Shown one piece after another: positions 4,892-47,987 of a stretch of DNA of 64,000 bases; position 1 is the first letter of the stretch, and every line of letters begins with the position of its first letter. A program made the position numbers and the translations under genes. Source of the DNA: Gordius albopunctatus (lineage: Eukaryota); contig OZ193909.1 in NCBI GenBank assembly GCA_964276515.1, positions 13,640,001 to 13,704,000 on the forward strand. The letters are read 5' to 3'. The notes beneath the pieces are model-generated. The model worked only from the letters and a program-made list of their open reading frames with translations, was not told the DNA's origin and did no database searches.

Positions 4892-5156
4892 AAAATTTGA
4901 ATTATTGGTAAGTTGAATATGAAGAATCATGTATTATTTATAATGGATTTTTTATATTTAATGATATGTTTATGTTATATTAAAAATATAAGTATATTAT
5001 CAGTTTGAGTAATATTTTGATTTTTAAATGAATATGTTTTGCATGTATAATGCACAAACTTATTTTATTTGTTTTAACTAATTGCTTGTTAGAATATTAC
5101 ATTAAAAATAGCCAAAGTTTATTCTTTAAAATATAAATTTTAACAGCACTATAGAA

Positions 5157-6694
5157 ATGAGTCCATCAATTCCTAATACAAACAAAACACCAAGTGTTTG
5201 GCCAACTTATAAAGGGGTTCAACAAAATCAAGTTAATCACACTAATGAGAAGCGCTTAGCCTCACTCAAAAGAAAAAATCTAGAGATCAATGAGCGTAAG
5301 CAACAAATAAAAATTTCTCTGGAAAATTTTGACAGCAATCTCTCCTCAAATATTGATGCAAGCATATTACAGAGGAAGCACATTTTTTTCAAAGATGAAG
5401 AAATTGTGAATGAATTTGATACTGCTCAGAAATATGTTTTAAATAAAAATGAAAATTCATCTCCAATTAAAAGTTTAAAAAAGAAGTTATTTATAGAAGA
5501 TGAAGAGTCAAGAACAAAGACAAATAATGATCAAATGTTATTTAAACCACAATTTGAAGGAAAGAAAGGAGAAAAATTGTTAAATCTGAGTTTAAAGTAT
5601 TTTTAATTATTCTTATATCTGTTGAATGAAGTTTTATTATAAATATTACATTAGTGTTGTGATTTTAATTCCCTTTTTTATATTTTAGGATTGGTCAGGA
5701 TCAAAGATTTATTTTGAATGAAAACTTTGTTGATAGTGGAGAATCTGATGGTGAAGAACGTTGTGAGATAAATGGAAAAAGGGTTGTAAATACTTTACGA
5801 AAAATGCAAGCTGATGGAGATGACATATCTATCAACGAAGAGATGGAAATTTATGAAAGGGCCCTACAATCAGCCACAACAAAACTTTTTGAACGCGGGG
5901 AAAGTCCAAAAAATTTAGAAGACATTGCGGATTATATACCCTCTATCAAGGGGCAAAAATATGAAAATAGTTCCTTACGTAATGACTATAATGGAATCTC
6001 GAGGTTTTTTAAAGATGTCCAAGCACCAAAAATAGCAGGGGAGGTAAGAAGTTGCTCCTCTATCATAGAAAGATTTGACCCAACTCGAGCCGATCACTTA
6101 GAAAGGTTTGAAATTAAGTCGACAATACCCGTGGAAAAGACACAATCTCCACCCAAAGAAAAAAAGAAAAAGACTGATAAAGTAATTGTTAAAACTTCAG
6201 AAATTAAAGTCGAATCTGATGAAAAGAAATATTATACGGTTTATCGCGATTTGAAAGGCGCTTTCGGTAATACATCCACCAGCTCATCCTTTACAATATT
6301 AAAGCCTCCCAATGACGTCTCTGTATCCGATGCTGCTCAAAAACCTGTTGAAAATGTGACCACTAAAATTTTTAATAAGGCTTTAGAATCGCATTTTTGT
6401 GAAGAAGAACGCTTTGTATCTCTTCCCACCCAAACCGAAGATGAATCAAATTTAACCGGCTCAAAAGGAGAATATAATTTTTTTATATCTACATCCGTTT
6501 TTGAAGACCCTACTTCGAACCTTAACGCGTTAGTTTCTAATTTTTGCCAAAGACCCAGCCCCAATGCAGATCCTGAAGCTTGGGAACGCAAAAGGGCCGA
6601 GTTATCGCATTTGTTTAAAACTAAGCGAAAACGTTATATACGCCACAAAAAATTCTCTTCACGCCGCTTACCCGCATTTGGAAAAAGAAACTAA
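5157..6694 (+). CDS. NOL8: Nucleolar protein 8-like (exons 5157-5596, 5689-6694), about 481 aa
   Basis: NEKRLASLK...KHIFF...LF...KPQFEGKKGEKLLNL|KIGQDQRFILNENFVDS matches the NOL8 core. RFDPTR..H and a basic W..KR..L C-terminus are also present. A 92-nt GT-AG intron joins ORFs 5157 and 5714 in frame. Confidence 0.85.
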
Positions 6695-7779
6695 TTGCTT
6701 TATGTATACCTATGTAGATGCTTTTTATTGTCTACGGTTTTATATTAAAAATAGGGGGCCGATGGTTTAATCAAAATGGAGGCTCTAGATCAGTGTAGAG
6801 CAGTGGATTATCTCTTTTGACATCACACTGGCTCGAAGTTTTATCTAATTAAGTCCATGTCTCAGATCCCTCATATGTTTATAAGGCATAAAATAAAAAA
6901 AATTATTCATAAATAAAACAAAGTAATGTAGTTGAAACGAATATATCAAGACAATATAAAAAAATTTACATGGTATAGTAAGTTTGTCTACATATGAATT
7001 GTAAGAGCACAAAATGGAACCGGGTGACAAGAAAACTTTAATATTTTCAAAAATAATAGAAATAGTAAAAAACTATACAACAAAGTATTTATAAAAATCA
7101 TTATTGCCACAACCCCGAAAAATCTTAGCCATATCTAAATTTATATCAGGAAAACAATCTAATTTATAGTAATTTGATCCCACAGTCGTGGAGTTTGTTT
7201 TGATTAGTTTCTTCCATCTTGACCAGGTGAGTGCCATATCTTGACTAATCTCTTTTGTTTTCATTACTTTATCGCCGGGGTCTTCCTCTCTTCTCCGCTA
7301 TCTCTATGTCAAGGACTTTTCGATTTACGTCATTCGTGCCCTTTCTTAGTATATGCCCATACCACCTAGCCAATTTTCGTTAATCATGTCCGCCATAGGT
7401 TGAATACCCATTTTTGTGATGAGAAAGACATTCGTCATATGGTCAAACTTAGTGTACCCCAAGCTCCATCGTATCATTCTAATCTCTGTGGCTTGTAATA
7501 GCTTTCCTTCTGTGGTGTTTAATGCCCATGTTTCACTTGCATATAGTAACACCGGTCTTACGATGGACTTGTAAGCTTTGCTCTTCAATCATATTGGCAT
7601 TTTCTTGTCGCACATTACAAGGGATATACTTTGCCATTTGAGACAACCTTTTTGGATCAGGGCATTGACTTCTGTTGCGCAACCTCCCTCTTCATGTAGC
7701 ATCGAGTCGAGGTATGAAAACCTTTCTACTTTAGGGGACTTTAGATGGTCATCCAGTGTGGGGCTGCCTATAACCAGAG

Positions 7780-11788: not shown

Positions 11789-14539
11789 AAAACAATCAAA
11801 CTCGGCTTATAAAATCATTTTAAAGAATAATTTTTGAGATTAACTAGTTGATTTATATTGCAAAGTTCAAGTTCAGAATATTAAAAAAAGAACTAGTTCA
11901 TAGTTCACGGTGTAAAAAAAGGAACTAGTTCAAGTTCATAGTTCAGTTCAGAAAAAAGTGAACTAGTTCCTAACAGCTCTACCTATAACGTACATTTCCA
12001 TTTATACCGTTTTTCGATAGTTGAACATTAAACCATATCCAGCTAAGCGTTTTGACCACTTTTCGGCTTCTTCGAATACTTTCTCCTTTGTTTCCTCGCA
12101 TAGTACTATATCATCGGCATATGGCATACACCATGGCGAGGGCTTTTGAATGTCTCTCGTTATCATGTCTAAAGCTATATTAAATAAAAGGGGACTAAAA
12201 GCAGATCCTTGATGTAGTCCAATTTTAACCCGAAAATGTTTAGAGTCTCTAACTGTTGTTCTAAAGCAAGAGTTGGAGGCTTCATAAATATTTTCTATAA
12301 GCAGTATATATACGTCAGGGCTCAGGGATATTTTGTTTTCTCAGGCACCACCATGCTAAATGGTTGGGGACCGTGTCATAAGCTATCTCCAAGTCGATAA
12401 AAACCATATGTAGGTCTTTCCTGTTTTTATCATACCTATCCAACATTTGTCTTAGTGCGAAGATTGGGTCGATTATGGATTTGCCAGCCACAAATCCGAA
12501 TTGATTAGCCAATATTTCCACGTCGTTTTTCAGCCTTGTAAATAAGATCCTTTCCAAAACCTTTAAGGAGTGGCATGTTAGCTTGATACGTCTGCAATTG
12601 CCTCAATCCTAAGGATCTTCTTTGCCTTTAAATAATGGTATAATCGTGCTTGCCCTCCATTGATTAGGAATTCGCTCTTCTAGCAATATCTTGTTAAGGA
12701 GGTTCGCATGGTGGAGACTCCCTCTTCACGACATCCGAGCAATGCTTCCATAGATATTCCATCTGGGCCATTTGCTTTTTATTTTTGCATCTTGTTTTCT
12801 GTCCTAACTTCATCCAACTGAAAGAGTTCGACCATACTTATATTTGGCTCAATTTTTTGAAGGGAATCCTTGTCATTTGCAATGTTCATAAGTTTCTTAA
12901 AATATTCTTTCCACCATTTCCTTCGGCTTGAATAAGGTTTGACCCTTCTCGTTTTTGACTATTTTAAGAACTCCGACATCGCCTTCTCCCTTATATTGGC
13001 CAATTTGTACATAAGTCTATCGCCCCCTTTGTAATCCAGTTTGTTTGCCATCTCGGTGTATGCGGCATTCTTCGCTATTGCAACGGCCTTTTTTGTGGCC
13101 CACTTTGCGTCTCTATACTCTTGATAATCCCCCGATTTTTTTGATTTATGCCACAGTCTATATAGATTTTTCTTTCTTTCGATGAAATCTTTAACCGATT
13201 GATCCCACCACCATAGCTCCCTATTCATAGCTTTACCTCCTTTGGTCTGTCCTAGAGCACGAATCGCTGTTTCCTTAATGTCCTTAGATAGCGTTTCCCA
13301 ATCGTCATCTACGTCCCTTTGCAAGTCCCTTGCACCCAAGAGTGAGGAGTCATTTTGATGGTATTCTTTGTTCGTCGACGTATCCTTTGGCCTTTCGTAT
13401 CAATTTCGAGGTTCATAGATCTTTCTTCTTTCGGGAAATACTCTTCTGTCGAGATCCATAACAAGGGGACGATGTTGCCTGGCGAATTCATTTCTCGGTG
13501 TTACTTTGCAATCCTTGATACTGCATAAGTCATTTCGTCCTTTCCACTTCTATAAGTCACAATATGATCTTCGCTCTTTTGAAAATAGATGTTAACGATC
13601 GCCATGTCATATGCTTGGGATACTTGGAGAAGTTTTTCCCCTTCTTTGTTATTTAGACCATGCTCATAGCCTCCATGATTGCGTTCATACACGAGGCGAT
13701 CTTTCCCTACGTGAGTGTTGAAATCTGCCCCAATAATTAGACTTTCTTCCTGTCCTATTCCTTGTATTTCTTTTTCCAATGAATCGAAGAATATGTCTTT
13801 CTCTGATTCCATAAACCCAATTTGGGAAGCATACGCGCACATGACGGTTAGGAGGCCCTCTTGATCTGCAATCTTCACCCACATTAGCCTGTTGGAACAA
13901 CGCTTGACTTCCACCACCTTGTCCTTGAACAATTCGCTTAGAAAGATACCGACCCCGTTTATACGATTTGATGATCCACTGTAGAATAGTTTGTAGCCTT
14001 CTCCTAACTCCCGAGCTTTGGTTCCGTTCCACAGTGTTTCTTGTATGCAGGCGATGTGTACCTTTCTTATTTTTAGCATTTGTGCGACCCCGAAGCTCTT
14101 CCCCGTCCACATTCACACATTCCAGCACGTTATTCGCATTATTTCCACAAATAATTTCCTTAACCGACTTCGTTGTGAGTGGGGCAGTAACCCTAGTGTA
14201 TTTTTTACATTGCACGGGCGGGGTATGCAGTGCGCGTCGTTTGTGGAGGACGCCATAGCTTTCTCTTGTAAAATCTTATTTAAAACTATCATGATTTTGG
14301 AGTTGGTATTTATAGCCGGTTTCCGACCTGACGCCAACCCTCCACTTTTTGCACACGGACTTGAGACCATTGTAGGTAGTGTTATAATTATTAATCACTA
14401 TAATAATTCATTCAAATAAAGTTAGTAATTAAAATCTGTGATATCAAGTAGTTTCATAAATGGCACTTCAATTTGTCAAATATATTTTACAAACCGCAGA
14501 TTATTCAAATTTTATAAAATATATTAACTCGATAGGTAA

Positions 14540-18260: not shown

Positions 18261-20465
18261 CTAGCTGACCCAGCAAACGTTGTTTTGCTATATACATTAT
18301 TTCTAGAAAATACTATAGGCGATGTGCATGCTCATCCTTATGCCTCGATCATATAATGAGCGATTAAAACATAATTGTCCTATGGGAAATAATTCACTAA
18401 TTTAATGTAGGAAGAATTATTAATACGCTAAATATAAACACAAAAAGCAAAGTACTTAACATCAAATTTTTTATACTTTGCTTTACACATTTTGCCATAT
18501 AAATATACTGTCAAATAAATTAATACATGCCTAAAGAATTATTTAATTTGTAATTGCCAAAGGTTTGTTTTTTTTATTAAAGGTGTAAAAAAACCTTTTT
18601 TGGCCCTACCGCAAAATCACGATTCTGGCAAATGGCCGTTTTCGGACTTCAATCAAAACCCCAACACCCCCCCCCCCCACCTTAAAAATCTGTTTTATTT
18701 TTGCGCCTAAACATATTTTAGCGCGTCAAGCTTTTCACTTATTTCGGCAAACTACAATTCAGCTTACATCTGCTTACAAACTTGAGGTATATCATTGGCC
18801 GCCAACTGAGCTTTATTGCAATAGAGTCTCATTGTTATCATGTTTAGCTGATATATTGTGTAGTTTAAGCCATCAGGTACCATTATAGACGTAGCCCGAC
18901 CCTCTACCCTCAATTGGCCCTCCGTTAATTTTTACTATTGCTTAAATTATATAGGAAATCCATGCTCCTATACGAAGAAGAGCTTAATAAGGCCACACAA
19001 AGACAGCAAGTAGACAGGGGTTTAAGGGGCAGAGCCCCTTGAGTAAGATTTAGAGGGGCAGCCCCAACCGGGGTACAGGGGTGAAGCCCTTTGTTTGAAT
19101 CTTCTTCTTCTTTATCAGTTATTTGGTCCCACATTGGTGGGGTTAGTTTTGATAAGTTTCTTGCATCTTGACCGGGTGAGTGCCATGTCTTGACTACTCT
19201 TTAGTTTTCATAACTTTATCGCCTTGCCCGTTCCATGTGACACGGGGTCGTCCTCTTACTTTCTTGTCCAGCACCTCCATGTCGAGTACTTTTCGATTTA
19301 GGTCTATCGTGTCACCACCTTAACCGATTTTTGTCAATCATGTCCGCCATAGGTTGAGTATTCATTTTTGTCATGAGAAAGTCATTCGTCATATGGTCGA
19401 GCTTAGTTTACGCCAAGCTTCACCGTAGAATTCTCATCTCTGTGGCTTTTATAAGCCACCCTTCCCTGGTGTTTAATGCGGATGCTTAATAATCAATTTT
19501 TAATTCCTTAAATAATTTATTATCATAATGTCAAGTTCGACAAAAAATAAGGTTTTTTTAAACTCACTTTGTTGTTCACATGTATTCCATCTTTATTTAG
19601 TTATTTTAATAACCCACAGTCCAGGTTTAAGATGATCCATAAAATGACCACTGTTTTAGGTTAATTTGTATGAGTAGTACGGCCCGAGGCGAAAAGCCAT
19701 TTTTATTTTTGTCCCGAATCGAGCCCGGAGCAACATCGTTAATCTCGCTTATTTCCGAAACATGCGAATATTCCCTAACTTCCTAAGCAAATCCTCCTTT
19801 TTGTTTAAAATATGCCTAGATATACAGCATTAAAAACTGAGATATTATGAGGGGTCGTAAAAAATCATTGCCCACAAACCTTACTTTGGTCAATAGGCTA
19901 TCAGTGTACTCAGATAATTCATAAAAACTTAAAGCAACCGGTAGGAGTTAGGGGCGGAGTCCTTCTTAGAGGTCCGAAGAACTGAGATATATCAACATTT
20001 ATTGGCACTTTGTTAAAAGTATTTTCATTTTTCTCCTTATTTAACGCGCAAAAATGACAAAATTCGATTTTTATTTATTTAGCCACACAGGAGGGGACAC
20101 GACCGTCATATAATAATAATAATTGACGTGTAAAATAAGCAAAAAAATGACTTTGATATTTATTGTTTCAAAGCGCGTAAAAAGTTTAAATTTTCCGCAA
20201 CACATGCCTACTGCATTTATCACACTACCTACACGATAGATACGCAGTATACGTCATGAGGTTGCGTTTGAGTGACATTTTAGTAAACGTCAAAACGTAT
20301 AAGACTAAATAACCTGACCGTCTTGTGACTTAGAAATTTGGAATATAGTTAAAAACCTAGGCTCAGACCTACCAATCATTCGCAGAAATTTCCATCTAAA
20401 TCGGTCCAGCCGTTTCGGAGAAGTTTAACCACAAACACCGTGACACGGGAATTTTATATATTAGA
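18261..20465 (-). mobile_element. Non-autonomous Helitron
   Basis: On the minus strand it starts 5'-TCTAATATATAAAATTCCCGTGTCAC and ends with the hairpin AGCAAA-ACAACG-TTTGCT then GGGTCAGCTAG-3'. Inserted between A and T with no TSD. Confidence 0.8.
19099..19485 (-). mobile_element. 5'-truncated RTE LINE 3' fragment inside the Helitron
   Basis: Homologous to 7170-7530 and 40980-41340, and ends in a (GAA)n tail on the minus strand. Confidence 0.85.
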
Positions 20466-31900: not shown

Positions 31901-34900
31901 CGTCCACCAAGTTATTTACACCAGCTTCCCGACTTGCAGGTTGTGGATCGAGACCCGGAGAGGACAAAATTTTCTTATTTTTATTTAAATTAATATTTTG
32001 TTCTTGTTAATGCCATTGATAATATGACTTTTTGACCGTCCGCAGGCTACTGACCAATGAAAAAATGACCATTGGCCAAATAAATCCAAATTTTTCGTTT
32101 TTCGTTTTTGAATTGGGTAACATTGATAATTGATATGGTTCCCTGTTCCTCTCCAAAGGCTTATGCCTCTATTTAATGTGGGTTTGAATCCCGGCGAACG
32201 TTCTAAATTGCAGGTTCGAGACCCGGAGAGGACAAATTTTTTTATTTTTTTTTAAATTAAATTAATATATTGTTCTTGTTAATACCATTGATAATATGAA
32301 TTTTTGACCGTGTTCTGGCTACTGACCATTGAAAAAATGACCATTGGCAAATTGTGTTCGAAATTTTTTTTTCGTTTTTGAATTGGTATATTAGGTTAAC
32401 ATTGCTAATTACCCTATGCCTCTACTGATATGGGTCCCTGTACCCCTACAAAAGCTTATGCCTCTATTAATGTGGGTTCGAATCCCGGAGAGGACAAAAA
32501 ATTTTATTTTATTTTTAAATTAAATTAATATATTGTTCTCGTTAATACCATTGATAATATGACTTTTTGACCCTCCGCAGGCTACTGACAAATTGAAAAA
32601 ATGACCCTTGGCCAAATAAATCGAAATTTTATTTTTTATTTTTTTTAAATTAATATATTGTTCTTGTTAATACCATTGATAATATGACTTTTTGGCCGTC
32701 CGCTGGCTACTGACCAATGAAAAAAAGACCTTTGGCCAAAATATGAATAGAAATTTTTTTGGTTTTTTTTTGACTCGTATGTATTTATAGACCATCTCTT
32801 GGTACTGACCGATAAAAAAATGACCATTGGCCAAATTGTTTTTAAGTAAAGGCCAGTGGTTCTTTTAATATTTTATTTTTATCATAAATATTTTTCACTA
32901 ATAATGATACCATATCTGTTTTTAGATTATGTTTAGTTTCATATACTAAATATATAAATAATTTCCATTATTTTAAAGTCTTTTATTTAAATTTAATTAT
33001 TAAAACACATGTGTCTAGTTAATTTTATACCCCGACCCTCAAAATTTTTTGTAAAATTGTGGGAAACATTTATGTTATTAAACTTAAATTAGAAGAGTTA
33101 GGTATATTAGCTATGTAAATAGTGTTTTAATTGCTATGCAATTTATGGGCTCGTTTTTTGTTGTCCGTCGTCCGTCCGTCGTCCACCAAGTTATTTACAC
33201 CAGCTTCCCGACTTGCAGGTTTGGATTCGAGACCCGGAGAGGACAAAATTTTTTTATTTTTTTTAAATTAAATTAATATTTTGTTCTTGTTAATACCATT
33301 GATAATATGACTTTTTGACCCTCCGCAGGCTACTGATCAATGAAAAAATGACCGCTGGTCCAATAAATCGAAATTTTTAATTTTTCGTTTTTGAATAGTT
33401 TAACATTGATAATTACCCTATGCCCTCCCCTACAAGGGCCTATGCCTCTATTTATATGGTTCCCTGTTCCCCTCCAAAGGCTTATGCCTCTATTTAATGT
33501 GGGTTTGAATCCCGGCGAACGTTCTACATTGATGGTTCGAGACCCGGAGAGGACAAAATTTTTTATTCTTTTTTAAATTAAATTAATATATTGTTCTTGT
33601 TAATACCATTGATAAAATGACTTTTTGACCGTGTTCTGGCTACTGAACATTGAATAAAATGACCATTGTCCAAATTTTGTTCGAAATTTTTTTCTCGTTT
33701 TTTTTGACTCTTATGATTATTCCTGTTAATACCATTGATAATATGACTTTTTGGCGGTCCGCTGGCTGCTTACCAATGGAAAAAATGACCATTGGCCAAA
33801 GTGAGCATCAAAAATTTTTTTCCGTTTTTTTGGCTATCATTGACTTATAGAGTATCTGCTGGGTACTGACCAATGGGAAAAAATGATCATTGGCCAATTT
33901 TCGTTTTTTTAGACTCGTATGTATTTATAGACCGTTGTAATGATCTGAAACGTCGACATTCCCCCCCCCCAGAGATGCATCAAGATTTGAAGGATTTGAA
34001 AGATTACGAAGCATCTACTACAATTGCTTGGGTCACCAAAATGTTTTTAGACAAAAAATTTACGGTTCACCCAAAATTCGTTAAAGATTTAGAGAAGTAT
34101 TATGCTGCAAAAACTGAATCCCTCAATTTCGAAGAGGAAAATGTCGAGACAGCTAGAAATATCATAAATACATGGGTTCTTGACCAAACAGCTTAATTGA
34201 CCGTGTTTTATCTGCACCCCTACCTAATAGTTTAAACAGAATGTTATTACTAAACGTTTTTTGCTTTAACGCCAAATGGGAAGTTCCCTTTAAAAAATCT
34301 TTAACTATTTGGAATGACACCTTTCTCGCTGCTCAAGCAAATATCATAGTCCGAGTACCATCTTATATCAGCTATTTTACCTATTTTTGTTTTAATAGTA
34401 ATTTAATAAATACATATTTCTCAATGTTAGGCACCTTTTAAAATTAAAAAAATAATATTTGTTATCGCTAAATTAATTTTGATAGGTTATTTATTAACCC
34501 TAATTAATGCCCCCCCCCCAAAACATACTCTCGAGAACCCGATTTCCCCAATAGCTACATTGAAATAAAAATAGATCGAAAAAACTCTCGAGTACCCCCT
34601 TCCCCCAATAACTTAATCTTACTTTAATTACTCAACCTTGGAATTTAATGGGTTTTCTGAGGGAAACGGATAAATCGTATAGAGAGGATGACTTTGTACA
34701 TTTTTAAATACTCATTTCTTTATTTCCAGTACAACATCTACAAACTTAATCATTAACTATTAATACAGCGCGCATCATTTTAAATTCACAAAAGGTAATT
34801 ATTAATTTAATTTCAATAAAATAATTTGTAATTTAAACTTATTTAAGATTTCGAATCTTCTAGAAAGATAATCTTTTTACGCTATTTAGATTAAATTCAT

Positions 34901-37900: not shown

Positions 37901-38556
37901 CATTTTATATGTTTTATTGGTAGGAAATTAAAGTCTTTACATAATTCCCGGAGGTATGATCTCTATTATGGTGATAGATGCTGCTTTTGCTTTTTAAGCA
38001 TAATAGTCGTTGTTTCTTAGACAAGTAGTCCTAACAAGATTAAAACTTTCTGTGGGCAAACCTATCGCTTTAATGCGCACTCGTTTTTTATTGAAATTAG
38101 CACTTATAAGACACGGTAAAAACTATTTTTCTGAACTAATTAATTATAGATGAACCTCGTATAGAATTTTTTCTAAAGGGTCTCCGTTTTGATCCCGACT
38201 TAAGTCAGACCTTGAGACTCGAATTCGCAAAAACCAATACCAAAGTCGCTAAACCCAAAATTCCAATTGTCGTTAACGGATGTCATAATGTCACCGCCGC
38301 AGCCTCGATCCTTAACGGAGCCGGCTTAGTGATAAATGGACCACTGAATGGCCACCATCATTTGTTATCCAATCCCTACTATCACACCCAACAACATCTT
38401 CAATTGGGAAACAACATTCAGCATCCTCACCCTTCTCATCTCCACCAATCTCTAACACCCTTAACCGCCTTCCCTCAAGTTATAAATTGTCAATCGGCAT
38501 TCCTCAGGCCCATTACATTACCTGGTATTTATTTTGCATCCCCACCCCTTGATTAA
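28999..38556 (+). CDS. cpo: Couch potato / RBPMS / MEC-8 family RRM protein (exons 28999-29127, 36824-36901, 37596-37649, 37741-37803, 38179-38524 or to stop at 38556)
   Basis: Spliced translation with GT-AG phase-0 introns: ...[110 protein letters not shown], the diagnostic cpo/RBPMS RRM. The 3' end is uncertain. Confidence 0.95.
30389..30450. repeat. (AAAT)n microsatellite
   Basis: Imperfect AAAT run visible directly. Confidence 0.9.
31011..31176. mobile_element. Small hAT-type MITE
   Basis: CATGGTCGTAGCCAG...CTGGCTACGCCCAAG. Perfect TSD TCTTCTAC. Confidence 0.9.
31257..31417. mobile_element. Small hAT-type MITE
   Basis: Perfect TIR CATGGGCGTAGCCAG. TSD TATATAGG/TACATAAG. Confidence 0.85.
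31862..32845 (+). mobile_element. HINE/DINE-1-like element with an expanded central tandem array
   Basis: Starts TTGCTATG(A)AATTTATGGGC plus GTCC repeats, then about 4-5 units containing GGTTCGAGACCCGGAGAGGACAAA and GGCTACTGACCAATG. Same family as 10365-11078. Confidence 0.7.
33129..33932 (+). mobile_element. Second HINE/DINE-1-like copy with tandem array
   Basis: TTGCTATGCAATTTATGGGC, GTCC repeats, and repeat units near-identical to 31862-32845. Confidence 0.7.
33935..34360 (+). pseudogene. Intronless serpin gene fragment
   Basis: [32 protein letters not shown]...[13 protein letters not shown] then, after a frameshift, [17 protein letters not shown]. These match the serpin hE-hF and s3A motifs. 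No reactive centre loop seen. Confidence 0.85.
35805..35994 (+). mobile_element. 3' end of the HINE-like family
   Basis: Matches the reverse complement of 10365-10640, including the pyrimidine tract and the GGGCCGAAGGCCC hairpin at 35976-35988. Confidence 0.7.
37153..37299. mobile_element. Small hAT-type MITE in a cpo intron
   Basis: CATAGGCGTAGCCA...TGGCTACCCTCATG. Perfect TSD CATGATGT. Confidence 0.9.
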
Positions 38557-41500
38557 CAATTTCCTTATTTCTAATATAATGATGCGCTAAAGGACGGTGT
38601 TATTTTTAGAAGTTGTAGCTAGTATAAAATTTGTTTCTTCTGTATAAACAAATTCTGAATTGTACTAAGCTTGAAACACAGACTTTATATTATATTTTGT
38701 GATGCCTCGTTTGTAAGTACAGTTAACAAATTATCAGTTATCAGTGGTTATCATAATAAAAGACAGACTCAAAATTACAATTTGGCAAAAGAGATGTTTT
38801 TATAATTATATTCAAACTAAGGTGAAAATACGACTCCAACTCTGTTAGCAAGCCCGACTGATGGTCTTATTCACAATATATATCAAGATTTACCATCCGG
38901 TTATGTTCACACAACCCATTTGCAGCAATCGGGCGCCCCCGTATGTAATAACAAATGGAAATTTATGTATTAAAATTGCGTTTATATATTAATATCTATT
39001 TATTAATTTTTCCTTTTTAATTTACATTTTTACTTTACAAACTTTATGTTTAAAAAGTTCTAGATGACACCCATATGAATTTTAAGTGTATAAATTTGTG
39101 TCAGCCAACTAATCTATCTAAGGCAATCAGTCGCTTATGTTTAATTTAAAGCACGTTTAAAAAATGTCTAACTGTTTGAGGTTGATTAGAAAAATTCTAG
39201 GTTTGAGGTATGCTTTAAGGGCTGCATATGACATCTCCTCTTTTTTATACTATAAACCTTTATAAACACAATATGTACAACGGTGTATTATTTTTAACAT
39301 ACTTACAAATAATTTAGCAGCAATTACAATGCTTATACATATACACAATGACAGACACTTATCACCCCATTGCCCTTAGAGGTCTTTGCTATAGTCCCGC
39401 AACACAATATCAAGGATTCAATAAATCCCGCGGAACAAATAAATAATTACATGAACCTGGATTACACAATAAATAATCGACATTCTATTATTACGCAACA
39501 TACCTCCACCCAAATGAAAGTTATTCAATTAGACACCAACAAAACCTTCTCCCCGCCTAAGCAATCTCATACGCGTGTGAAAACAAATGCAAATAACCTT
39601 AGATGTCTAGTAAAGTTGTCAGGCAACGGAACATTGAACTCACAGTATTTAAATAGTTTATCGCTTAATCGCATATTGACAATGCCAACCGATTCCGTCC
39701 ATGATAAACATCTTCAAAGGCATACAGTCAACAATCCTATACCAACCATTTCTAATCATTCTAATAAAATAATCTCCGAGTAATTTATTAATTACATTAT
39801 ATCTCTTCCCACCAATGGTTGGAGCATTCCCACAACATTTTAGAATCACACTTATTCGAAGTTGAATGGTACAAATCTAAAAATGTGAGACATCTCCTAT
39901 AATAATTGGTGGGAGAACTATGTAAATTCATTTGATATACCTGATCCAACGCTTTATTTATAATTAAGAGTTCATCGATTTACTCAAATAATTCCACTAT
40001 TGGATGCACACATAATGGAGTAATTTTAGAAGAATCTTTGATTTTTCACAAAAATCCTCAAAGCAATTTGACTGAAGTTTTAGATGCACTGCTTGGTCCA
40101 CGACATTGCAATTCGGTTATATCGTGCGTTGCAGCAAATAGTTCAATTATCGATAAAAAAATATTGCCTTAAAAGCAACATGATGGGTCAGGTATGATAA
40201 GCAATCATCCTATATATGATCAAATATGTGAATTTAGTAAATTGTAGGATTTATATTATCTGCGGACCAAGCGAAAACTTGGCTTAAAAGGAAACAGGCA
40301 TGGTTAACATATCCCAGGCATTATCTCAATATAGGTAGCTACCCCATCTTAAAATGTACATAGATAGTTCATCCTCGTATAGCCCTGACCATTAATAAAT
40401 GCAGCTTTGGATAAACCCCAATCCGTCCATTTATGTTATTTTTACATTTATCATATTGACGAAATAATGACTGTGATAGAAAAGTGTAAAAGTAACCTCG
40501 GCAACTAATTTATACCAACAAACACCTCTCGTTTTGTCATTCCACGTATAAACTATAATAACTTATGTTTAAATTCCATATGCTGATAATCGGCAAATGT
40601 TTACGTTATACATTATTATATAAATCGTTATATTTAAATAATTTACTGATTAATGTATATGTATAAATGCTTATGGGCCAGTTTTAGTCCGATGTTAATT
40701 ATATATTCACTATTATTATCATAAAAATAACGTTATTGAATTTGTTGTATGAAGATTTAATAAATTTGTTGTAATATTAAAGACTTTATTATTTATCACT
40801 TTAATAGGATCAAATTTAATGCTCTAAAAAGCATTTTCGACAAAAAGCGTTTTATGTATAAAAACTGTGTGTTTTAAGACGTTTTCTTGTCACTTCAAGA
40901 ATTATATTGTATTTTGGTGTATTTAAAATACTTTAAATGTATAATAGTGTCTAAAAAACATTTACATATAAAAGAATCTTTTCTTCGATCCTTTTCTTCT
41001 TTATCAGGCATTTAATCCCACAACCGTGGGGTTTGTTTTAATGAGTTTCTCCCCTCTCAGTCCGGTAAATTTCATGTCTTGATCAATCTTTTTCATAAAT
41101 CTGTCGACTTACTCTTTCCACGTCACTTGAGGTCCTATTCATGCTTTCCTCGTTCACTCCATGTCAGTACTTTTCGATTTAAATCATTCGTTTTCTTATT
41201 TTTGTTAATCGTGTCCACCATAGGCTGAATACTTATTTTTGTCATGAGAAAGTCATTCGTCATATGGCCGAGATTAGTATACCCCAAGCTCCACCGGATC
41301 ATTCACTCCCTGGCTTGTTGTAATAGCTTTTATTCCGTGGTAGTTTCACCTCCATAGAGTAACACCGGTCTTCAAACCATTTTTGCATTTTATTGTCGCA
41401 CATTGCACCGGATATACTTCGCTATTTAAGCCATCCTTTTTGAATCTAGGCATTGACCTCTGTTGCGCAACCTCCTTCTTGGTGTAGCATCGAGCAGATG

Positions 41501-41615
41501 TATGTAAACATGTCTATTTTGGGGTTGGTTACGCTGGTCAGTTTCATTAGGGGCTTTTATTAACGCGTACTCTACAGTCTACACTATAAACTAGACGCGA
41601 TATAATGGGGACTAA

Positions 41616-41675
41616 GAGGTATAAACAAGAGAGGGCAGTATGCGTAAACACGTAAAAAGAAAAAGCGAGCGAATG
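41616..41675 (-). repeat. 60-bp terminal repeat (3' copy)
   Basis: Exact reverse complement (60/60) of 44226-44285. Confidence 0.97.
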
Positions 41676-41697
41676 CGATGGTGTCTCTTCTTTGTGT

Positions 41698-41704
41698 TTA
41701 TATA
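41698..41704 (-). promoter_or_regulatory. Putative TATA box of the RT element
   Basis: TATATAA on the minus strand begins 29 nt upstream of the first base of the repeat (CATTC, Inr-like). Confidence 0.6.
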
Positions 41705-41712
41705 GCCCAGTG

Positions 41713-43780
41713 TCACCTATCTATGGGGGTTTCTGTTCCGTTTTCCTCTATGGTTTGGCTGGAATTTTCGTCTTCCCAAAAACCCAAATCGACTTGTTCC
41801 TCGATATTCTCCAGTTCGGGGATTGAGACGCCTTGGGGTGGTATGTTTGTGAACGTGCTAGGCACCGAGTATCTTTCCGGCGGAAATCATGTCCGTGATT
41901 GCATGTCGGCCGGGTTGTTGGTAGATGAGATCCATATTAGGTTGAAGTGCAATCGTATCAAGTGTGAGACGTCTTAAGCCGCCACAAAGTGGGCGATTAT
42001 GCTCTCCAGGACCGGGGAGTTCGAGCCCCCCTTTAGTAGGACGAAGTATGCCGTGGTCGAGTATGTCACGACTTTCGGGTATCTATATCCGTTGTAGAAA
42101 GCGTGGAGGTAGGTATATATATTGTTGCTATCGTCTCCGTGGCTGTGATGTGTCCTGCATGGACCCAAGGCAACCCGATGGCTTCTGCTGCATTTTCGAA
42201 CGATATTGAGAAGTTTTGGTCGCCCCACGTGATCCCGATGTGGCTGTCGGAGGCATCGGCGTATATCGTAGTGTCGTGGTTTTGGTACAGTGGTATTATT
42301 TGCGTTGGGACGGCCAGACACCCCTGTAATTTAGCCTGTGCGGCTGGTCTGTTGTGCGTGGTAACGTTCTTGTTTGCCGCGATGGTTTAGAATGTGCTGA
42401 ATATCCTCGACATTCCCATGAGGTTATAAAAGAAATAGTTCAGCACTCCGAGGGCTTCCAGTAGCGAGTAATCGACCGGGGGTGTTCTTGTTGACAGGAA
42501 TAAGAACAGGATATCTGCTGCATAGGTGAGCCTCCTTTGTATATCGGGTGAGCATCTGATTGAGTGTATTTCGAAATCTAAGACAAGGCCCAGATATTCT
42601 ATCGATGTTTCTGGTATAAAGGACGATTTGCTTACGTTAATGGTTAGGCCCCAATCGTTAGCCATCTCAGCTATATTGCCCAAGTCCTCCATGACATCAT
42701 TGTCTTCCTCAGAAAAGATAAGGATATCGTCTAAGTAGAGGTTATAATTGCATTTGGTGACCGCTTTCTTTACCAGGTCGGCCACTATTGTTTGTAGTAC
42801 GTAGGGGGAGAAGGATGCCCCCATCACTAGTACTTTATATTGGTACATTTTGTCCCGCCATTTGTACCCGCAGTAGCGTTTTGCGTTCTTGTGCAAGGGT
42901 ATACTGAAGAATGCAGCCTTGAGGTCTATTTTGGCTGCATAGTTGGCGACTGCTAGCTTCTTTGCTGTTAGTGGGATGGTCGCCAGTTTGACAGGGAGAT
43001 GCCTAAAATTCTTTGAGGCGTCGGATAGGACAGTGATTATGCCAGCGTCCACATTTTTATTTGCTATGAAGAAAGTTTCGGAGGTGATGGCGAGCGCTTG
43101 CGTCTCGGAGACAACCCCCGTTTACTTCATAGTCGTCAAGTAGGCTGGACTCCCCTTGAGATTTTTTTATGCCTATGGGGCCTGAACAGGCCTTCATTCC
43201 TCCTGATCTTAGGGAGGTCAAGGGGTGGCTTGAAACCTTCGAAGGCCACCTTCAGCGTAAAAGGTGACATAAGTGGGTGCGAGTTCAATCTCAATGTTTT
43301 AATGTCGAGTGGCCCTGTCGGTTTTGTTGTGGAGCCCGGGTTACCCCATAGGAAAATGGCCTTGTGGTCATTCACAAGGTTCGGGATATTCCCCGAGCCT
43401 GCGTCGCCGCCGAGGGATTCGTCGTCGTTGGGGTTGATCCGGTCGCCCACTTCGGTGGGTGGCCTTGGGTATTCCCAAGGCGACAAAGGAGGGGGCTGCG
43501 CAGGCCCTTCATTGTTGTCGTCGTTTACCGGGTGCGCTGGAGAAAAGATCTGGCTGCGGGTCTCCCTTAAAAAGTTTTTAATTTGTTGCCACCACCTGGG
43601 AGAGCCCTGATCTTTATCTCCGTTGAGAGTCGGTTCGCCATTAGGCCAGCACTCCCACCAGTCGACGGTGTCACGGATTAGTTTACGAACGCGGGGCAGG
43701 GCCGCGTTCTTTTGGAAGTGTCGGCTCGGCTTTTTGCCTCTGCCCCTGCCAGCTTCTGGAAAAAACGACTTTTTGGGGAT
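41713..43780 (-). pseudogene. pol: reverse transcriptase + RNase H, with stops and frameshifts
   Basis: RT: KIDLKAAFFSIPLH, YQYKVLVMGASFSPYVLQ, YLDDILI, IEYLGL. RNase H: IYADASDSHIG, HITATET, VVTYSTTA, WISSTNNPADMQSR. An acidic tail ends just before the TATA box. Confidence 0.9.
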
Positions 43781-44226
43781 TTAGGCATTGTGACCTCTAC
43801 GTCCTTAAATCCCATATCGGTTAGCCAGGTTGTATCGTGTTTGGCGGCTGTTGCCCAATTGTATTTGATGGCCAGGCAAAGAGTTTTGAGTTGCTTGTCG
43901 TGGGCAGCTAGCACTTCGATTGGTGAAGTAGGAAGGCATACTTGGGACATCAAGATGGCGTATTTAGCCTCGTACTTATCGCGTTTCTGTACGCGTTGAT
44001 CAGGGTCTCTTAGCAGCTCTTCGAGGCCCTGAGTGTGATTAGGTATCTCTTCGCATAAGAACGCCGGGGTCTTTGGCGGTTCAAGCGACGGTACTATCTG
44101 CACCGTTGATGACATTTGTAGAGGTGGTGGTATAGGATGAACCACCTCCGTCTGGCTTTGTGACAGGGACCCCACGATTGACATAGAGTTTTCGAGCATT
44201 GTTCTCATGGCGTCAATCTGAAGTTC
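43678..44226 (-). CDS. gag/core-like ORF1, main part
   Basis: Open frame ELQIDAMRTMLENSMSIV...LAIKYNWATAAKHD directly upstream of and overlapping pol. Function is inferred from position only. Confidence 0.55.
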   Translation of the reverse strand, partial: ELQIDAMRTMLENSMSIVGSLSQSQTEVVHPIPPPLQMSSTVQIVPSLEPPKTPAFLCEEIPNHTQGLEELLRDPDQRVQKRDKYEAKYAILMSQVCLPTSPIEVLAAHDKQLKTLCLAIKYNWATAAKHDTTWLTDMGFKDVEVTMPKSPKSRFFQKLAGAEAKSRADTSKRTRPCPAFVN

Positions 44227-44285
44227 ATTCGCTCGCTTTTTCTTTTTACGTGTTTACGCATACTGCCCTCTCTTGTTTATACCTC
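44226..44285 (+). repeat. 60-bp terminal repeat (5' copy, within the inverted segment)
   Basis: Exact reverse complement of 41616-41675. Confidence 0.97.
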
Positions 44286-44321
44286 ACTTTCTCCCTAAAA
44301 TTGACCTTTTCTCCGGGATAC

Positions 44322-44468
44322 ATGCCGAGAAACAAAGACAATAACGATGAAGACCAAGAAGCCAACCGCCTTTCCCTGTGCCCTGTTAGACCAGGGGTTC
44401 CCGGTGCGAACTCAGCGGAACTGGTAGCTCAACTAGTGGAGATGCAAAGAGAGCAGAACCGAGCGAGA
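44322..44468 (+). CDS. Probable N-terminus of ORF1 in inverted orientation
   Basis: ATG 36 nt after the repeat gives MPRNKDNNDEDQEANRLSLCPVRPGVPGANSAELVAQLVEMQREQNRAR, which is cut off at the RTE junction. Confidence 0.55.
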
Positions 44469-45734
44469 CCTTTTTGCGGCTCTCTTTGCTACCCTATACT
44501 CTTGATAATCCTACGAATTTTTTGATTTATGACATCATATATAGAATTTTTTTCTTTCGGTGAAATCTCTAATTGAATGATCCCACCACCAAAGTTGCCT
44601 ATACATAGCTTTGTATCCTTTGGTCTGTCCTAGAACCCAAATCGCTGTTTCATTTATGTCCTTAGTTAGCGTCTCTCAATCGTCGTATACGTCCCTTTGC
44701 AACTTCCTTGCATTCAAGAGTGAGGACGCTTTTTGATGATATTTATAGTTCGCTGACCTATCCTTTAGAATTTCAAATCAAATTCGAGGTTATTAACTCT
44801 TTTTATTTCAGTAAACACTTTTCTTTCAAAATCCATCATAAGTGGGTGATGGTGCCTGGCGATTTCCTCTCCCGGTATAATTTTCCAATCCTTGATACTC
44901 CATAAGTCTCTTAGCCTTATGGGCAGATAGTCAATTTGACTAAAATGCTTCCCATTTATATAAGTCGAATATAATTTTTTCGTTGATCGCCATGTCGTAA
45001 GTTTGGTAAACTTGGAGAAGTTTTTCCTTTTCTTTGTTCTTCAGACCATGCCCATAGCTTCCATGATTTCGTTAATAACTGAGGCTATTTTTCCCTAGGT
45101 CGGCGTTGAAATCCGCCTCAAAAATTAGCCTTTATTCCTGTCCTATTCCTTGTATTTCCTTTTCCAATCATAGAATATGTGTTTCTCTAATTCCATACAC
45201 CCAATTTTTGAAGCATAAGCACACATAACGGTTAAAGGCCCCCATAATCTGCAACCTTCACCCACAATAACCCGAGGAACAACGCTTAACTTCCACAACC
45301 TTGTCTTTAAACGATTCGCATAGAATGATACCGAACCCATTTCTACGATTTGATGACCCACTGTAGATTAATTTGTATGCTTCTCCTAACTCCCAAGCTT
45401 TGGTTCCGTTCCACCTCGTGTGGGCAGGCGATGTGAGACTTTCTTATTTTAGTATTTCGACCTCGATGCTGTTTCCCATCAATATTTCCCCATTCCAGCA
45501 TGTTATTCGTATCCTTCCCACAGCTAATTTCCTTGTTGTAAGTGGGGCAGTAACTTTAGTGTATTTTTCACATTGCGGAGGACGCCCTAGTTTTCTGTCG
45601 TAGAATTTTGTTTGAAACTATCATGATTTTGGAATTGGTTTTTATAGGCGGTTTCCGACCTGTCGCCAACCCTCCACTTTTTGCCCACAGACTTGGGGTT
45701 GGGACCATCGTATTTAGTATTAAAAGGATTTTTA

Positions 45735-47170
45735 TTTTGATATGTGTTGAACTAGCTTGGTAACCTACTTATAATAAATGGATCCAAACCTGAGGTTTTC
45801 CCATCACTAATCTACTGGAGACCTCTCCGGCATAAATCCAAATTTGGTGTCTCGAATTCCTAAACTCCTAAAGCTTGGTCCATCTGTAGTTGTTATCCTG
45901 AATATCATCAATAATCTTGTATATCAGTGTCATATAGCTATCGTCCACTCGTTAGGCATTTTAAGCGTTTTGAGATACTGATGCTCAGAGGCCAGAAATG
46001 CCCGGCCTGCTGCCCGAACCTGCCCACGGGCTGGGCCGGAAAACTGTCAATTTTGACTTTCGGACAGGCCCAGGCGGACACCATAACAAGATTCGGGCAA
46101 TTCGGGCTAAATGTTGTAATTAAAAGAATATATTATATTGTTTTTGTGTATAACTTGTCACTTTTTAATTTGATATTTATTGTTTGTTAATACTAGTTTT
46201 TATCCAAAAAATTAAGATAAATTTTTTTTTTAATATAATAATATTAGTGCTAAAAATTTTAAATAACACCATTTCGGGCCGGACAGCTTTTATAATTTGG
46301 GCATGGCCGGGCTGACACAAAGAAGGGTTTGGGCGGGCAGATGAATTAAAAAATCGGGCTGGGCCGGGTTCGCACAGAAAAACTTTAATAAATATGATCT
46401 CTGATCAGTATTGCCTAACGTTTTAAAGCCTTCTATTGGTATGTTGTCCGGTTCGAGAGGTTTTCTTGACTTTAGTTTACCTATAGAAAATATGACCTCC
46501 GTATCCGAGATCCAATCCGCTGGGTCTAATTCTCCTTTTACACTTTTTTGGTTTGATCTTCGACGAGGGCCCGTTTTTGATTGATAAATCGACTGTCATG
46601 TGTGAGTGCTCCATTTTGTCCCTTAATTAGCCGACATTCCAAGTAATCTTTGAAATTTCAGCCCCTTGATTCTGCGATTTTGTAGATCAATTTTTCTCCT
46701 TCCTTAGAGTTTAGTTTTCATTTATAACATAGTACACCTTGTTTTTAGCTTTCGTTATGAATTTTTTAGCTGATCTCTTACCTATTGCTTATCATTAATA
46801 TTATTGCTTTTATACCAAACATCGTATAATCTCTTCTTTTCTTGTGTACATTCTTCATTCCACCACCACGACTCTCTAAGAATTCTTTTATTGGACTTGC
46901 TTTCACCTAATATTGATCGTCCCTTTTCCCGTATCGCGCAAGCTATCATCCTCGCACGAAAAGCCTTCATGTTTCATAATTTCTTCCCGAAATTGTTGAG
47001 TATTATTCTTTAGTCTTTTCCATATTATTGTAGCAGTTACTCTTTGTACTTTTTGCTCTTTAATATATACATCACATCCCTAGAAGCCTGTGTTGGCAAG
47101 CCAATATTTCACTCATCAAACATTCTTACGAGAAAGAAATCTATCTGAGTGGTACAGTCAAAACTGTTTA
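45735..47170 (-). mobile_element. Diverged RTE-type LINE fragment (second family)
   Basis: RESWWWNEE, PDNIPIEGFK, KMPNEW and a downstream FG(F) motif. Heavily decayed. Confidence 0.75.
45986..46403. mobile_element. MITE (CAGAGG...CTCTG), same family as 2945-3681
   Basis: Termini CAGAGGCCA / TGATCTCTG with shared subterminal blocks. No clean TSD. Confidence 0.75.
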
Positions 47171-47644
47171 ATTGTAAAGCCTTGAGCCTGAAAAAAATTG
47201 CCATTAACCGATATTTCGCGATTAAACGATGGAAATAAAAGTATATGTACATTATATTAAATATTCATTTCTTACGCTTCGCAATAAAACGATATTTAAT
47301 ATAATTATATGGTTGATTTAAGGACTCGTAAATGTTTGTAAATATCCGATATTGTACTAGTAAGCGATTTGTCAATAAACGATGTTTTTGTTGCTCTTGG
47401 GGGGGAAGGGAGGGGGGGTCGGGTCCCCTGCCCCCCCCCTAGCTACGCCACTGTCTTTAACAGGTTCCGTTTGTAAAAAGTAGGGTGACCCCACCAGTAA
47501 GAAACATAAAATTGTATTTAGCTACCAAAGGTATAGCTTCTTGGATCACGAGAGTACACAAGCTCAACCCTCACTATAAGTTATTCCTAGTTCAGTTAAA
47601 TAATTTCTTATATTCTATCGTTTCACAAATGTGTTTAATTTTTC

Positions 47645-47818
47645 GGTGGCCCGTCAACTTGCCGAAAAACATCTCGCCGAATTTAATGTCCCCCGGTTGA
47701 AAAAAGGTCCCCCATTTTGTGATTGGTTGAATGGGGGACGATTTTAAATTAGGGGACCTTTTTTAACCGGGGGACATTAAATTCAGCGAGATGGTTTTCG
47801 GCGAGTTGATAGGGCACC
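47645..47818. mobile_element. Mutator-like foldback MITE
   Basis: ~70-bp imperfect TIRs beginning GGTG..CACC. Perfect 9-bp TSD TAATTTTTC at 47636-47644 and 47819-47827. Confidence 0.85.
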
Positions 47819-47987
47819 TAATTTTTCGATATTAGCATTATATGCCAGTTAAAATACAATGTTGTAGGCCGCTATATATAGTCATAAATATACGTGTCCC
47901 TAATTTATGTCTAGGTTACACCAATTCTTGCAAAATGTATTTTTTAAAAACCATTGTTATTGGTGTCCGCATAAAAACTCGATTTTT

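Follow-up and report, generated by a model that had tools for sequence, protein, structure and literature searches.

Background

HEART elements are elements of invertebrate genomes with a reverse transcriptase (RT) that falls on the hepadnavirus side of the RT tree (Gong and Han 2018, as relayed in parts of PMC12691608, PMC12440569 and PMC11551314). In the portions of these papers drawn on here, it is proposed that hepatitis B-like viruses originated from HEART-type elements (PMC12691608), their mobilisation is described as unresolved (PMC12440569), and the terminal protein and the core are given as defining features of hepadnaviruses (PMC11551314). For the rotifer virus RTPV, the layout described is that of an RNA transcribed off a circular or tandem template (PMC12691608, same portions).

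Here, we analysed a window of 64,000 nucleotides from the hairworm Gordius albopunctatus (assembly GCA_964276515.1, contig OZ193909.1, positions 13,640,001 to 13,704,000; coordinates below are those of the window). It carries an insert encoding an RT and a ribonuclease H (RNase H), apparently of an undescribed lineage, the nearest named relatives of which come from hairworms. On balance, we lean towards the view that this insert was copied from a single RNA with terminal redundancy, made by a hepadnavirus-related, integrase-less retroelement, and that the RNA was reverse-transcribed into a chromosome break by twin priming.

An RT-RNase H element in pieces

The element is real and lies on the minus strand, with its pol interrupted by three frame changes and three stops. 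Its body comprises the following features, compared where indicated with the Gordionus proteins described below.

41616..44468, minus strand: whole homologous insert, 2853 bp, 49% GC inside a window of 33% GC
43678..44229, minus strand: remainder of open reading frame 1 (ORF1), predicted helical; no homologue found (0/43 candidates at E ≤ 10, protein lengths 105-335 only)
43136..43780, minus strand: pre-RT frame with a Trp-rich stretch, a Pro/acidic spacer and about 45 residues common to the Gordionus proteins; first ATG at 43270
42387..43121, minus strand: reverse transcriptase (YLDD), its first motifs degraded relative to the Gordionus proteins
41887..42386, minus strand: tether and RNase H, interrupted by a frame change and by stops; a substitution affects one of the acidic catalytic positions
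41713..41886, minus strand: acidic C-terminal tail of pol, 22% Asp plus Glu, no methyltransferase

The initial annotation had described a compact RT-RNase H element of about 2.85 kb at 41571..44468. This description stands, with the homologous insert delimited to 41616-44468, and every motif then quoted was located on the minus strand: IDLKAAFFSIPLH (42929-42891), VMGASFSPY (42827-42801) and YLDD (42737-42726) in the RT, YADAS (42263-42249) and WISSTNNPAD (41934-41905) in the RNase H. The RT matches Pfam RVT_1 (E 4e-25), and pol is collinear with one Gordionus protein (P0003) from 43270 to 41869, spread over three frames. The frame changes lie near 43170, 43120 and 42120, and the stops at 42387-9, 41974-6 and 41887-9. 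Sequencing or assembly error is ruled out as the cause of these six breaks, because short-read contigs of run X1 (two contig records) span all of them with 0 differences; the two runs used, X1 and X2, are possibly source material of the assembly and do not count as independent support for it.

This copy had been reported to lack an integration enzyme, in line with our scan of 30 stop-to-stop frames of the window (7 + 23, E ≤ 1), which matched no recombinase, integrase, endonuclease or protease family. Neither pol nor its tail contains a methyltransferase. The terminal-protein domain that had gone unrecognised in the annotation was equally missed by a profile of 14 hepadnavirus terminal-protein pieces (best E 1.6 among 88 targets); PF00242 was not matched, and ORF1 and the pre-RT frame have no G[LIVM]Y priming motif. 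A core profile built from 11 hepadnavirus core ORFs gave a best E of 0.37. The single-sequence structure model of ORF1 is poor, with a predicted local distance difference test (pLDDT) score of 46, too poor for a fold search, so a remote core homologue may have been missed. A Gag or capsid role for ORF1 is something that we only infer.

The way in which ORF1 and pol are connected may involve recoding at the following site.

43759..43777, minus strand: a pair of slippery heptamers, in the phase of ORF1, where its overlap with the pre-RT frame begins (113/10000 overlap shuffles give two or more)

These heptamers are a possible -1 ribosomal frameshift site. Since they open the overlap in phase, and since the pre-RT frame has no ATG before 43270, they suggest gag-pol frameshifting. 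The overlap of ORF1 with pol, as originally annotated, is present in this copy (43678-43780) and may not be the design of the family.

Placement of the RT and RNase H

The RT tree was built from 56 rows chosen among 172 protein cores and 32 locus cores. Hepadnavirus genomes came from 20 of 26 IMG/VR loci, identified by motif, one of which matches the TBHBV row in the portion of the PMC12691608 supplement used here. The window RT and the Gordionus proteins form a 100/96 clade, which is nested, together with 11 hepadnaviruses and 10 unnamed proteins, in a clade supported at 96/90, and 15 Dam-bearing DIRS proteins stand apart. The joint tree of RT and RNase H (41 rows; six intended rows lacked a core or end motif and were dropped) recovers the hepadnavirus-side clade at 96/85 and DIRS at 98/91. 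The order inside the hepadnavirus-side clade is unresolved, and hepadnaviruses form their own 100/100 clade without the window family. Gypsy rows form a separate clade in both trees. Forcing the family to group with DIRS is rejected (approximately unbiased test, p-AU 0.0175, two unlabelled rows having been put on the DIRS side after the tree was seen).

Structure comparison used a Gordionus model (pLDDT 78). Its top Foldseek hit by query template modelling (TM) score is an unnamed viral protein of 634 residues (0.63), and protein P of hepatitis B virus (HBV) scores 0.62 and 0.59; the other 47 of the 50 rows reach at most 0.54. Searches of the PDB returned generic RT matches only.

Several unnamed RT-RNase H proteins were met along the way. 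P0034, P0064, P0102/P0154, P0138/P0155 and P0157 have no methyltransferase, come from contigs of 1.4-3.8 kb (Logan, ENA, JGI) and possibly form a wider undescribed group; P0034, P0064 and P0138 match the hepadnavirus family PF00336, and the whole set falls in the hepadnavirus-side clade. P0066, P0129 and P0141, on ENA contigs of 12-25 kb, form a 100/100 RT clade with H[IL]DD and motifs that resemble those of tick HEART by eye. Finally, P0166, P0172, P0176 and P0177 make up an RT-RNase H group on ENA contigs of 1.8-7 kb; two of them have a precomputed PF00336 match, and their RT core is too short for the trees.

A family in hairworms

A protein search over 1.84 billion representatives gave 7901 matches. 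Among the best 150, the three closest proteins, scoring 201, 196 and 113 bits, all come from Gordionus, and the protein ranked after them scores 83. They are 35-43% identical to the window sequence and collinear with it from the pre-RT region to the end of RNase H. A profile search added six records, making 10 in all, on scaffolds of five different lengths. These records of Gordionus sp. m RMFG-2023 (XP_065317776.1, XP_065315139.1, CAK9296137/8.1 and the six others) are annotated as uncharacterised. Six of the 10 reach the end of RNase H, and five of these go on with an acidic tail of 64-90 residues, compared with 59 in the window. Domains of Dam (methyltransferase), integrase or recombinase are absent from 10/10 records, in which a separate recombinase ORF would not show.

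The element is a family and not a single relic, because many diverged contigs of the window's own organism align to it (27-36 at 43078 and 36-37 at 43555). As to the DNA context of relatives, IMG/VR gave one Gypsy-type locus and none of the family, and the 12 JGI loci contained no member by motif or by tree. A scan with the YLDD pattern, among the 80 loci listed, gave two with an RT match, neither of the element's type. The suggestion that the lineage might be undescribed agrees with our searches of the open-access literature, which turned up no paper on the family; the 2018 HEART paper and Repbase may bear on novelty. One supplementary file that accompanies PMC12691608 contains none of the words 'Gordionus', 'Nematomorpha' and 'hairworm'.

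A 60-bp repeat, a TATA box and a 5' segment that is likely inverted

The ends of the element are organised around a repeat and a promoter motif.

41616..41675, minus strand: 3' copy of the 60-bp repeat
41697..41704, minus strand: TATA box, lying 30 nt ahead of the repeat's first A; the 2.6-kb body has 2 TATAWAW sites on its sense strand
44226..44285, plus strand: 5' copy of the 60-bp repeat, R-like, the putative RNA 5' end
44226..44468, plus strand: 5' segment of 243 bp, probably inverted relative to the body, judging by AT skew and a 7-nt word at both ends
44322..44468, plus strand: ATG-led open frame of 49 codons reaching the end of the insert, no Pfam match

Along the minus strand, the final pol frame has its stop at 41713; the TATA box then begins at 41704 and the 3' repeat at 41675. 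The spacing first annotated (pol ending about 10 nt before the TATA box, the repeat starting 29 nt after it) is thus borne out: the box begins 8 nt after the pol stop, and 37 nt separate pol from the repeat. The two copies of the repeat are identical at 60/60 positions (E 2e-25) and inverted as they lie. The terminally redundant layout that had been proposed is therefore not what the DNA displays, and is recovered once an inversion of the 5' segment is accepted.

We consider it likely, from features of the sequence itself, that 44226-44468 lies flipped. The plus-strand AT skew is +0.39 in 44322-44468 and at most +0.04 in 237/237 windows of the body. A 7-nt word is found at both ends of the segment, a match equalled by 19/5000 random 19-mers from the body, and its codon phase in the flipped segment is that in which it is read at the head of ORF1. 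The frame at 44322..44468, open on the plus strand of the segment, is likely the displaced start of ORF1. In addition, the segment starts on the same base as the repeat that follows the TATA box, as an RNA 5' end would. Over 43775-44228, a diverged sister contig aligns without gaps (59 of 454 nt differ), and its next 236 nt do not align there. This run-on has about the length of the flipped segment, which is consistent with the inversion and is not proof of it; among the sister-contig alignments listed, none crosses a strand-change joint.

If the segment is flipped, the 60-bp repeat is a direct terminal redundancy starting 29 nt after the TATA box, and a unit of about 3 kb with a terminally redundant RNA starting after that box would fit. 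The identity of the two arms in so decayed a copy would be explained only if the copy was already defective when made, or is young. Beyond the 7 nt, direct similarity between the 5' terminus and the repeat is not significant (242/2000 shuffles). Repeats other than the 60-mer do not exceed 9 nt, and no DR1/DR2 was found. We found no epsilon-like or stable leader hairpin (three Rfam matches, all below the gathering score). The repeat is not followed by a TGG primer site, and all purine tracts are shorter than 11 nt.

The insertion site

The insert lies in a long interspersed nuclear element (LINE) that, from its motifs, we take to be of RTE type.

40988..41555, minus strand: left flank, C-terminal region of the LINE RT, in the same orientation as the right flank
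41566..41615, no strand assigned: 50 bp that may be element tail, filler or diverged LINE; LINE match not significant
44444..44489, no strand assigned: inverted match of 11 nt that spans the right junction, between element 44444-44454 and LINE 44479-44489
44471..45725, minus strand: right flank, endonuclease-to-linker region of the LINE, 77% identical to window 13090-14387

The LINE copy at 13090-14387 has a weak Pfam endonuclease match. About 1.1 kb of the LINE RT core is absent between the flanks and present in the sister LINE at 12.0-13.1 kb. Hence, the insert replaces part of the LINE, a replacement seen from both flanks and on which the initial annotation was silent. The 50 bp at 41566-41615, tested against the LINE copy, have no significant match (552 and 1693 of 2000 shuffles equal it). 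There is no target duplication at the two sides (the best common word has 6 nt and lies away from the junctions) and no poly(A) or A run at the 3' side of the insert. The 11-nt match at the right junction is the only exact inverted match of at least 11 nt in 41300-44700 besides the 60-bp pair. A 5' inversion joined via microhomology is a signature of twin priming. A later deletion may have removed both the missing LINE part and the true 3' end of the element. Further fragments of the flanking LINE were found at 11990-14390, 7160-7770, 19099-19433 and 46773-46934.

How the copy may have formed

With its promoter at the end of pol, the element would be transcribed from a circular or head-to-tail template, into an RNA starting at the repeat and extending 60 nt beyond a full unit. 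ORF1 would encode a structural protein, and translation of pol would depend on -1 frameshifting or proceed in a single long frame. The RT-RNase H would copy this RNA into DNA by a priming route other than the hepadnavirus terminal protein, and host repair or LINE-type copying would give rise to the chromosomal copies. In the present case, copying would have proceeded from both broken ends, and the two complementary DNAs would have been joined through the short word common to the RNA 5' end and ORF1. This joining would leave the 5' 243 bp flipped. The copy in the window, cut off from its promoter, would be a dead end.

Several observations weigh against this account. The folding of the 5' segment is no better than that of shuffles (z 0.01), and neither the window DNA nor the read-contig alignments show an un-inverted copy, a circle, a tandem junction or a transcript. 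Part of the depth from other copies shows a one-base length difference within the ORF1/pre-RT overlap, so that a single long frame is possible and the frameshift reading may be wrong. The joint RT and RNase H phylogeny that the initial annotation had proposed does place the element on the hepadnavirus side (96/85), and the approximately unbiased test rejects DIRS, in trees that lack named rows of HEART, proto-nackednavirus, nackednavirus, Ngaro, PAT and VIPER/TATE. These trees have long branches and comparison groups of unnamed proteins chosen by motif. The annotation had likened the RT and RNase H to the enzymes of both DIRS/Ngaro and hepadnaviruses; the RT and joint trees place it on the hepadnavirus side, and the RNase H profile favours DIRS for the Gordionus records. 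Five of the six Gordionus RNase H sequences score 24-30 bits on the DIRS profile (14.5 in the sixth) and 10-15 bits on the hepadnavirus profile, the DIRS profile being the broader one; the window pieces score 5.7/9.0 and 1.7/9.6 bits, respectively. The nearest Atlas clusters of P0003 are mostly unnamed, with HBV P ranking 20th, and their commonest phylum is Euglenozoa (a phylum being known for three members), which would fit VIPER/TATE. The RNase H of VIPER is itself placed with hepadnaviruses in the part of PMC6681497 cited here.

The last of these points favour the best surviving rival, which we nevertheless hold to be unlikely: an element of the DIRS order with split direct repeats (Ngaro, PAT or VIPER/TATE type) that in this copy lacks its recombinase and B repeats, the 60-bp pair being A1 and A2. 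The repeats of VIPER are given as A1...B1-A2-B2 in the same part of PMC6681497, and the 3' end may have been cut by a deletion. However, recombinase is absent from every frame scanned and there is little room for one: the stretch from ORF1 to the RT-homologous part has about 170 low-complexity codons, and the gap from pol to the repeat has 37 nt. The region between ORF1 and RT is, moreover, covered by many contigs of other copies (the 36-37 at 43555). No B repeat pair was found (869/1000 shuffles equal it, and the 3' end may be cut), and motif B reads PMG..SP, as in Blubervirales, and not PFG, as in the Ngaro rows (by eye, on the rows of the PMC12691608 supplements used here).

More improbable again is that the same element entered by another path, a finished double-stranded linear DNA being captured by end joining as in HBV, with the 5' inversion as a separate event. 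The absence of poly(A) and target duplication and the presence of a host deletion are what such capture would leave, and the portion of PMC6071206 used here describes HBV double-stranded linear DNA as integrating at breaks by non-homologous or microhomology-mediated end joining and as unable to make pregenomic RNA. Yet the inversion requires a second independent event, 80-90% of integrated HBV is not highly rearranged (same portion of PMC6071206), and neither the terminal protein nor the DR1/DR2 for making such DNA was found. Finally, a natively inverted repeat, as in a DIRS1-like panhandle element without recombinase moved in trans, is very improbable: the pair is perfect and inverted as it lies, and inverted terminal repeats occur in DIRS-like elements (PMC6681497, in the part cited), but our search for an internal complementary region found none (the best candidates are equalled in 1802 and 1212 of 2000 shuffles), 183 bp lie outside the 5' arm, the alignment of another copy ends at the arm, and skew, frame and breakpoint word all indicate an inversion event.

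Other features in the window

Open frames of 138-341 codons without a Pfam match above the cut-off lie on the plus strand at 5130-5603, 5669-6691, 38140-38553 and 39352-39780; these frames are possible host exons or decayed elements. A MITE-like hairpin (miniature inverted-repeat transposable element) occupies 47642-47821, with 76-bp inverted arms that are 83% complementary and 28 nt apart. Two related tandem repeats of 125/126 bp are found at 32499-32771 and 33590-33831, and a five-copy array of a 45-bp unit at 1663-1888.

Comparison with known systems

It is a tentative idea, and one that we regard as rather doubtful, that the genomes of hairworms preserve fossil copies of a pararetrovirus-like agent of animals, the third of its kind. 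Such an agent would be a circular replicon of 2.8 kb whose RNA is terminally redundant; it would use gag-pol-type frameshifting and have no integrase or terminal protein. It would be intermediate between DIRS-type retrotransposons and hepatitis B-like viruses and belong to a wider group with the unnamed RT-RNase H proteins on 1.4-3.8-kb contigs. If true, this reading would give the first readable genome layout for HEART-grade elements, and the present copy makes it concrete: a promoter at the end of pol, a 60-nt redundancy, and neither integrase nor terminal protein. From such a layout follow predictions as to where the RNA starts, a template that is circular or tandem, and junctions of the repair type. 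Each of these can be checked in the existing chromosome-scale hairworm assembly, and the layout bears on which came first, the pregenome layout or protein priming.

Elements with long terminal repeats (Ortervirales) differ, as no protease, DDE integrase, tRNA primer site or polypurine tract was found in the element. Compared with Ngaro, PAT and VIPER-like elements, it has an A-like pair, and neither a B pair (its 3' end may be cut) nor, in this copy, a recombinase. It shares with DIRS-like elements the RT-RNase H fold, a pre-RT motif and the match to the RNase H profile. However, this copy has no recombinase, methyltransferase or internal complementary region, and its tail has 59 residues against 132-291 in 24 DIRS-type proteins; as for their inverted terminal repeats, its 5' arm is not terminal and is explained by inversion.

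The likeness to Blubervirales lies in the size of about 3 kb, the RT-RNase H without integrase, motifs A and B, and, if the 5' inversion is accepted, a TATA box closely followed by a terminal redundancy of limited length (in RTPV about 33 nt, according to the portion of PMC12691608 used here). In contrast, terminal protein, core, DR1/DR2 and epsilon-like hairpin were not found in the element, which has YLDD instead of YMDD, an acidic tail after RNase H and a possible gag-pol-type frameshift. With HEART, it shares a pre-motif-A stretch that is similar by eye; in the seven tick HEART rows at hand, motif C ends in DN and motif B reads PFG(I/L)RP, whereas the element family has YLDD and PMG..SP (also by eye). 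The element thus falls outside both the DIRS-like elements and Blubervirales. Its RT lies on the hepadnavirus side, outside Blubervirales and in an invertebrate genome, which is the position that characterises HEART, and it is best filed as a HEART-grade lineage.

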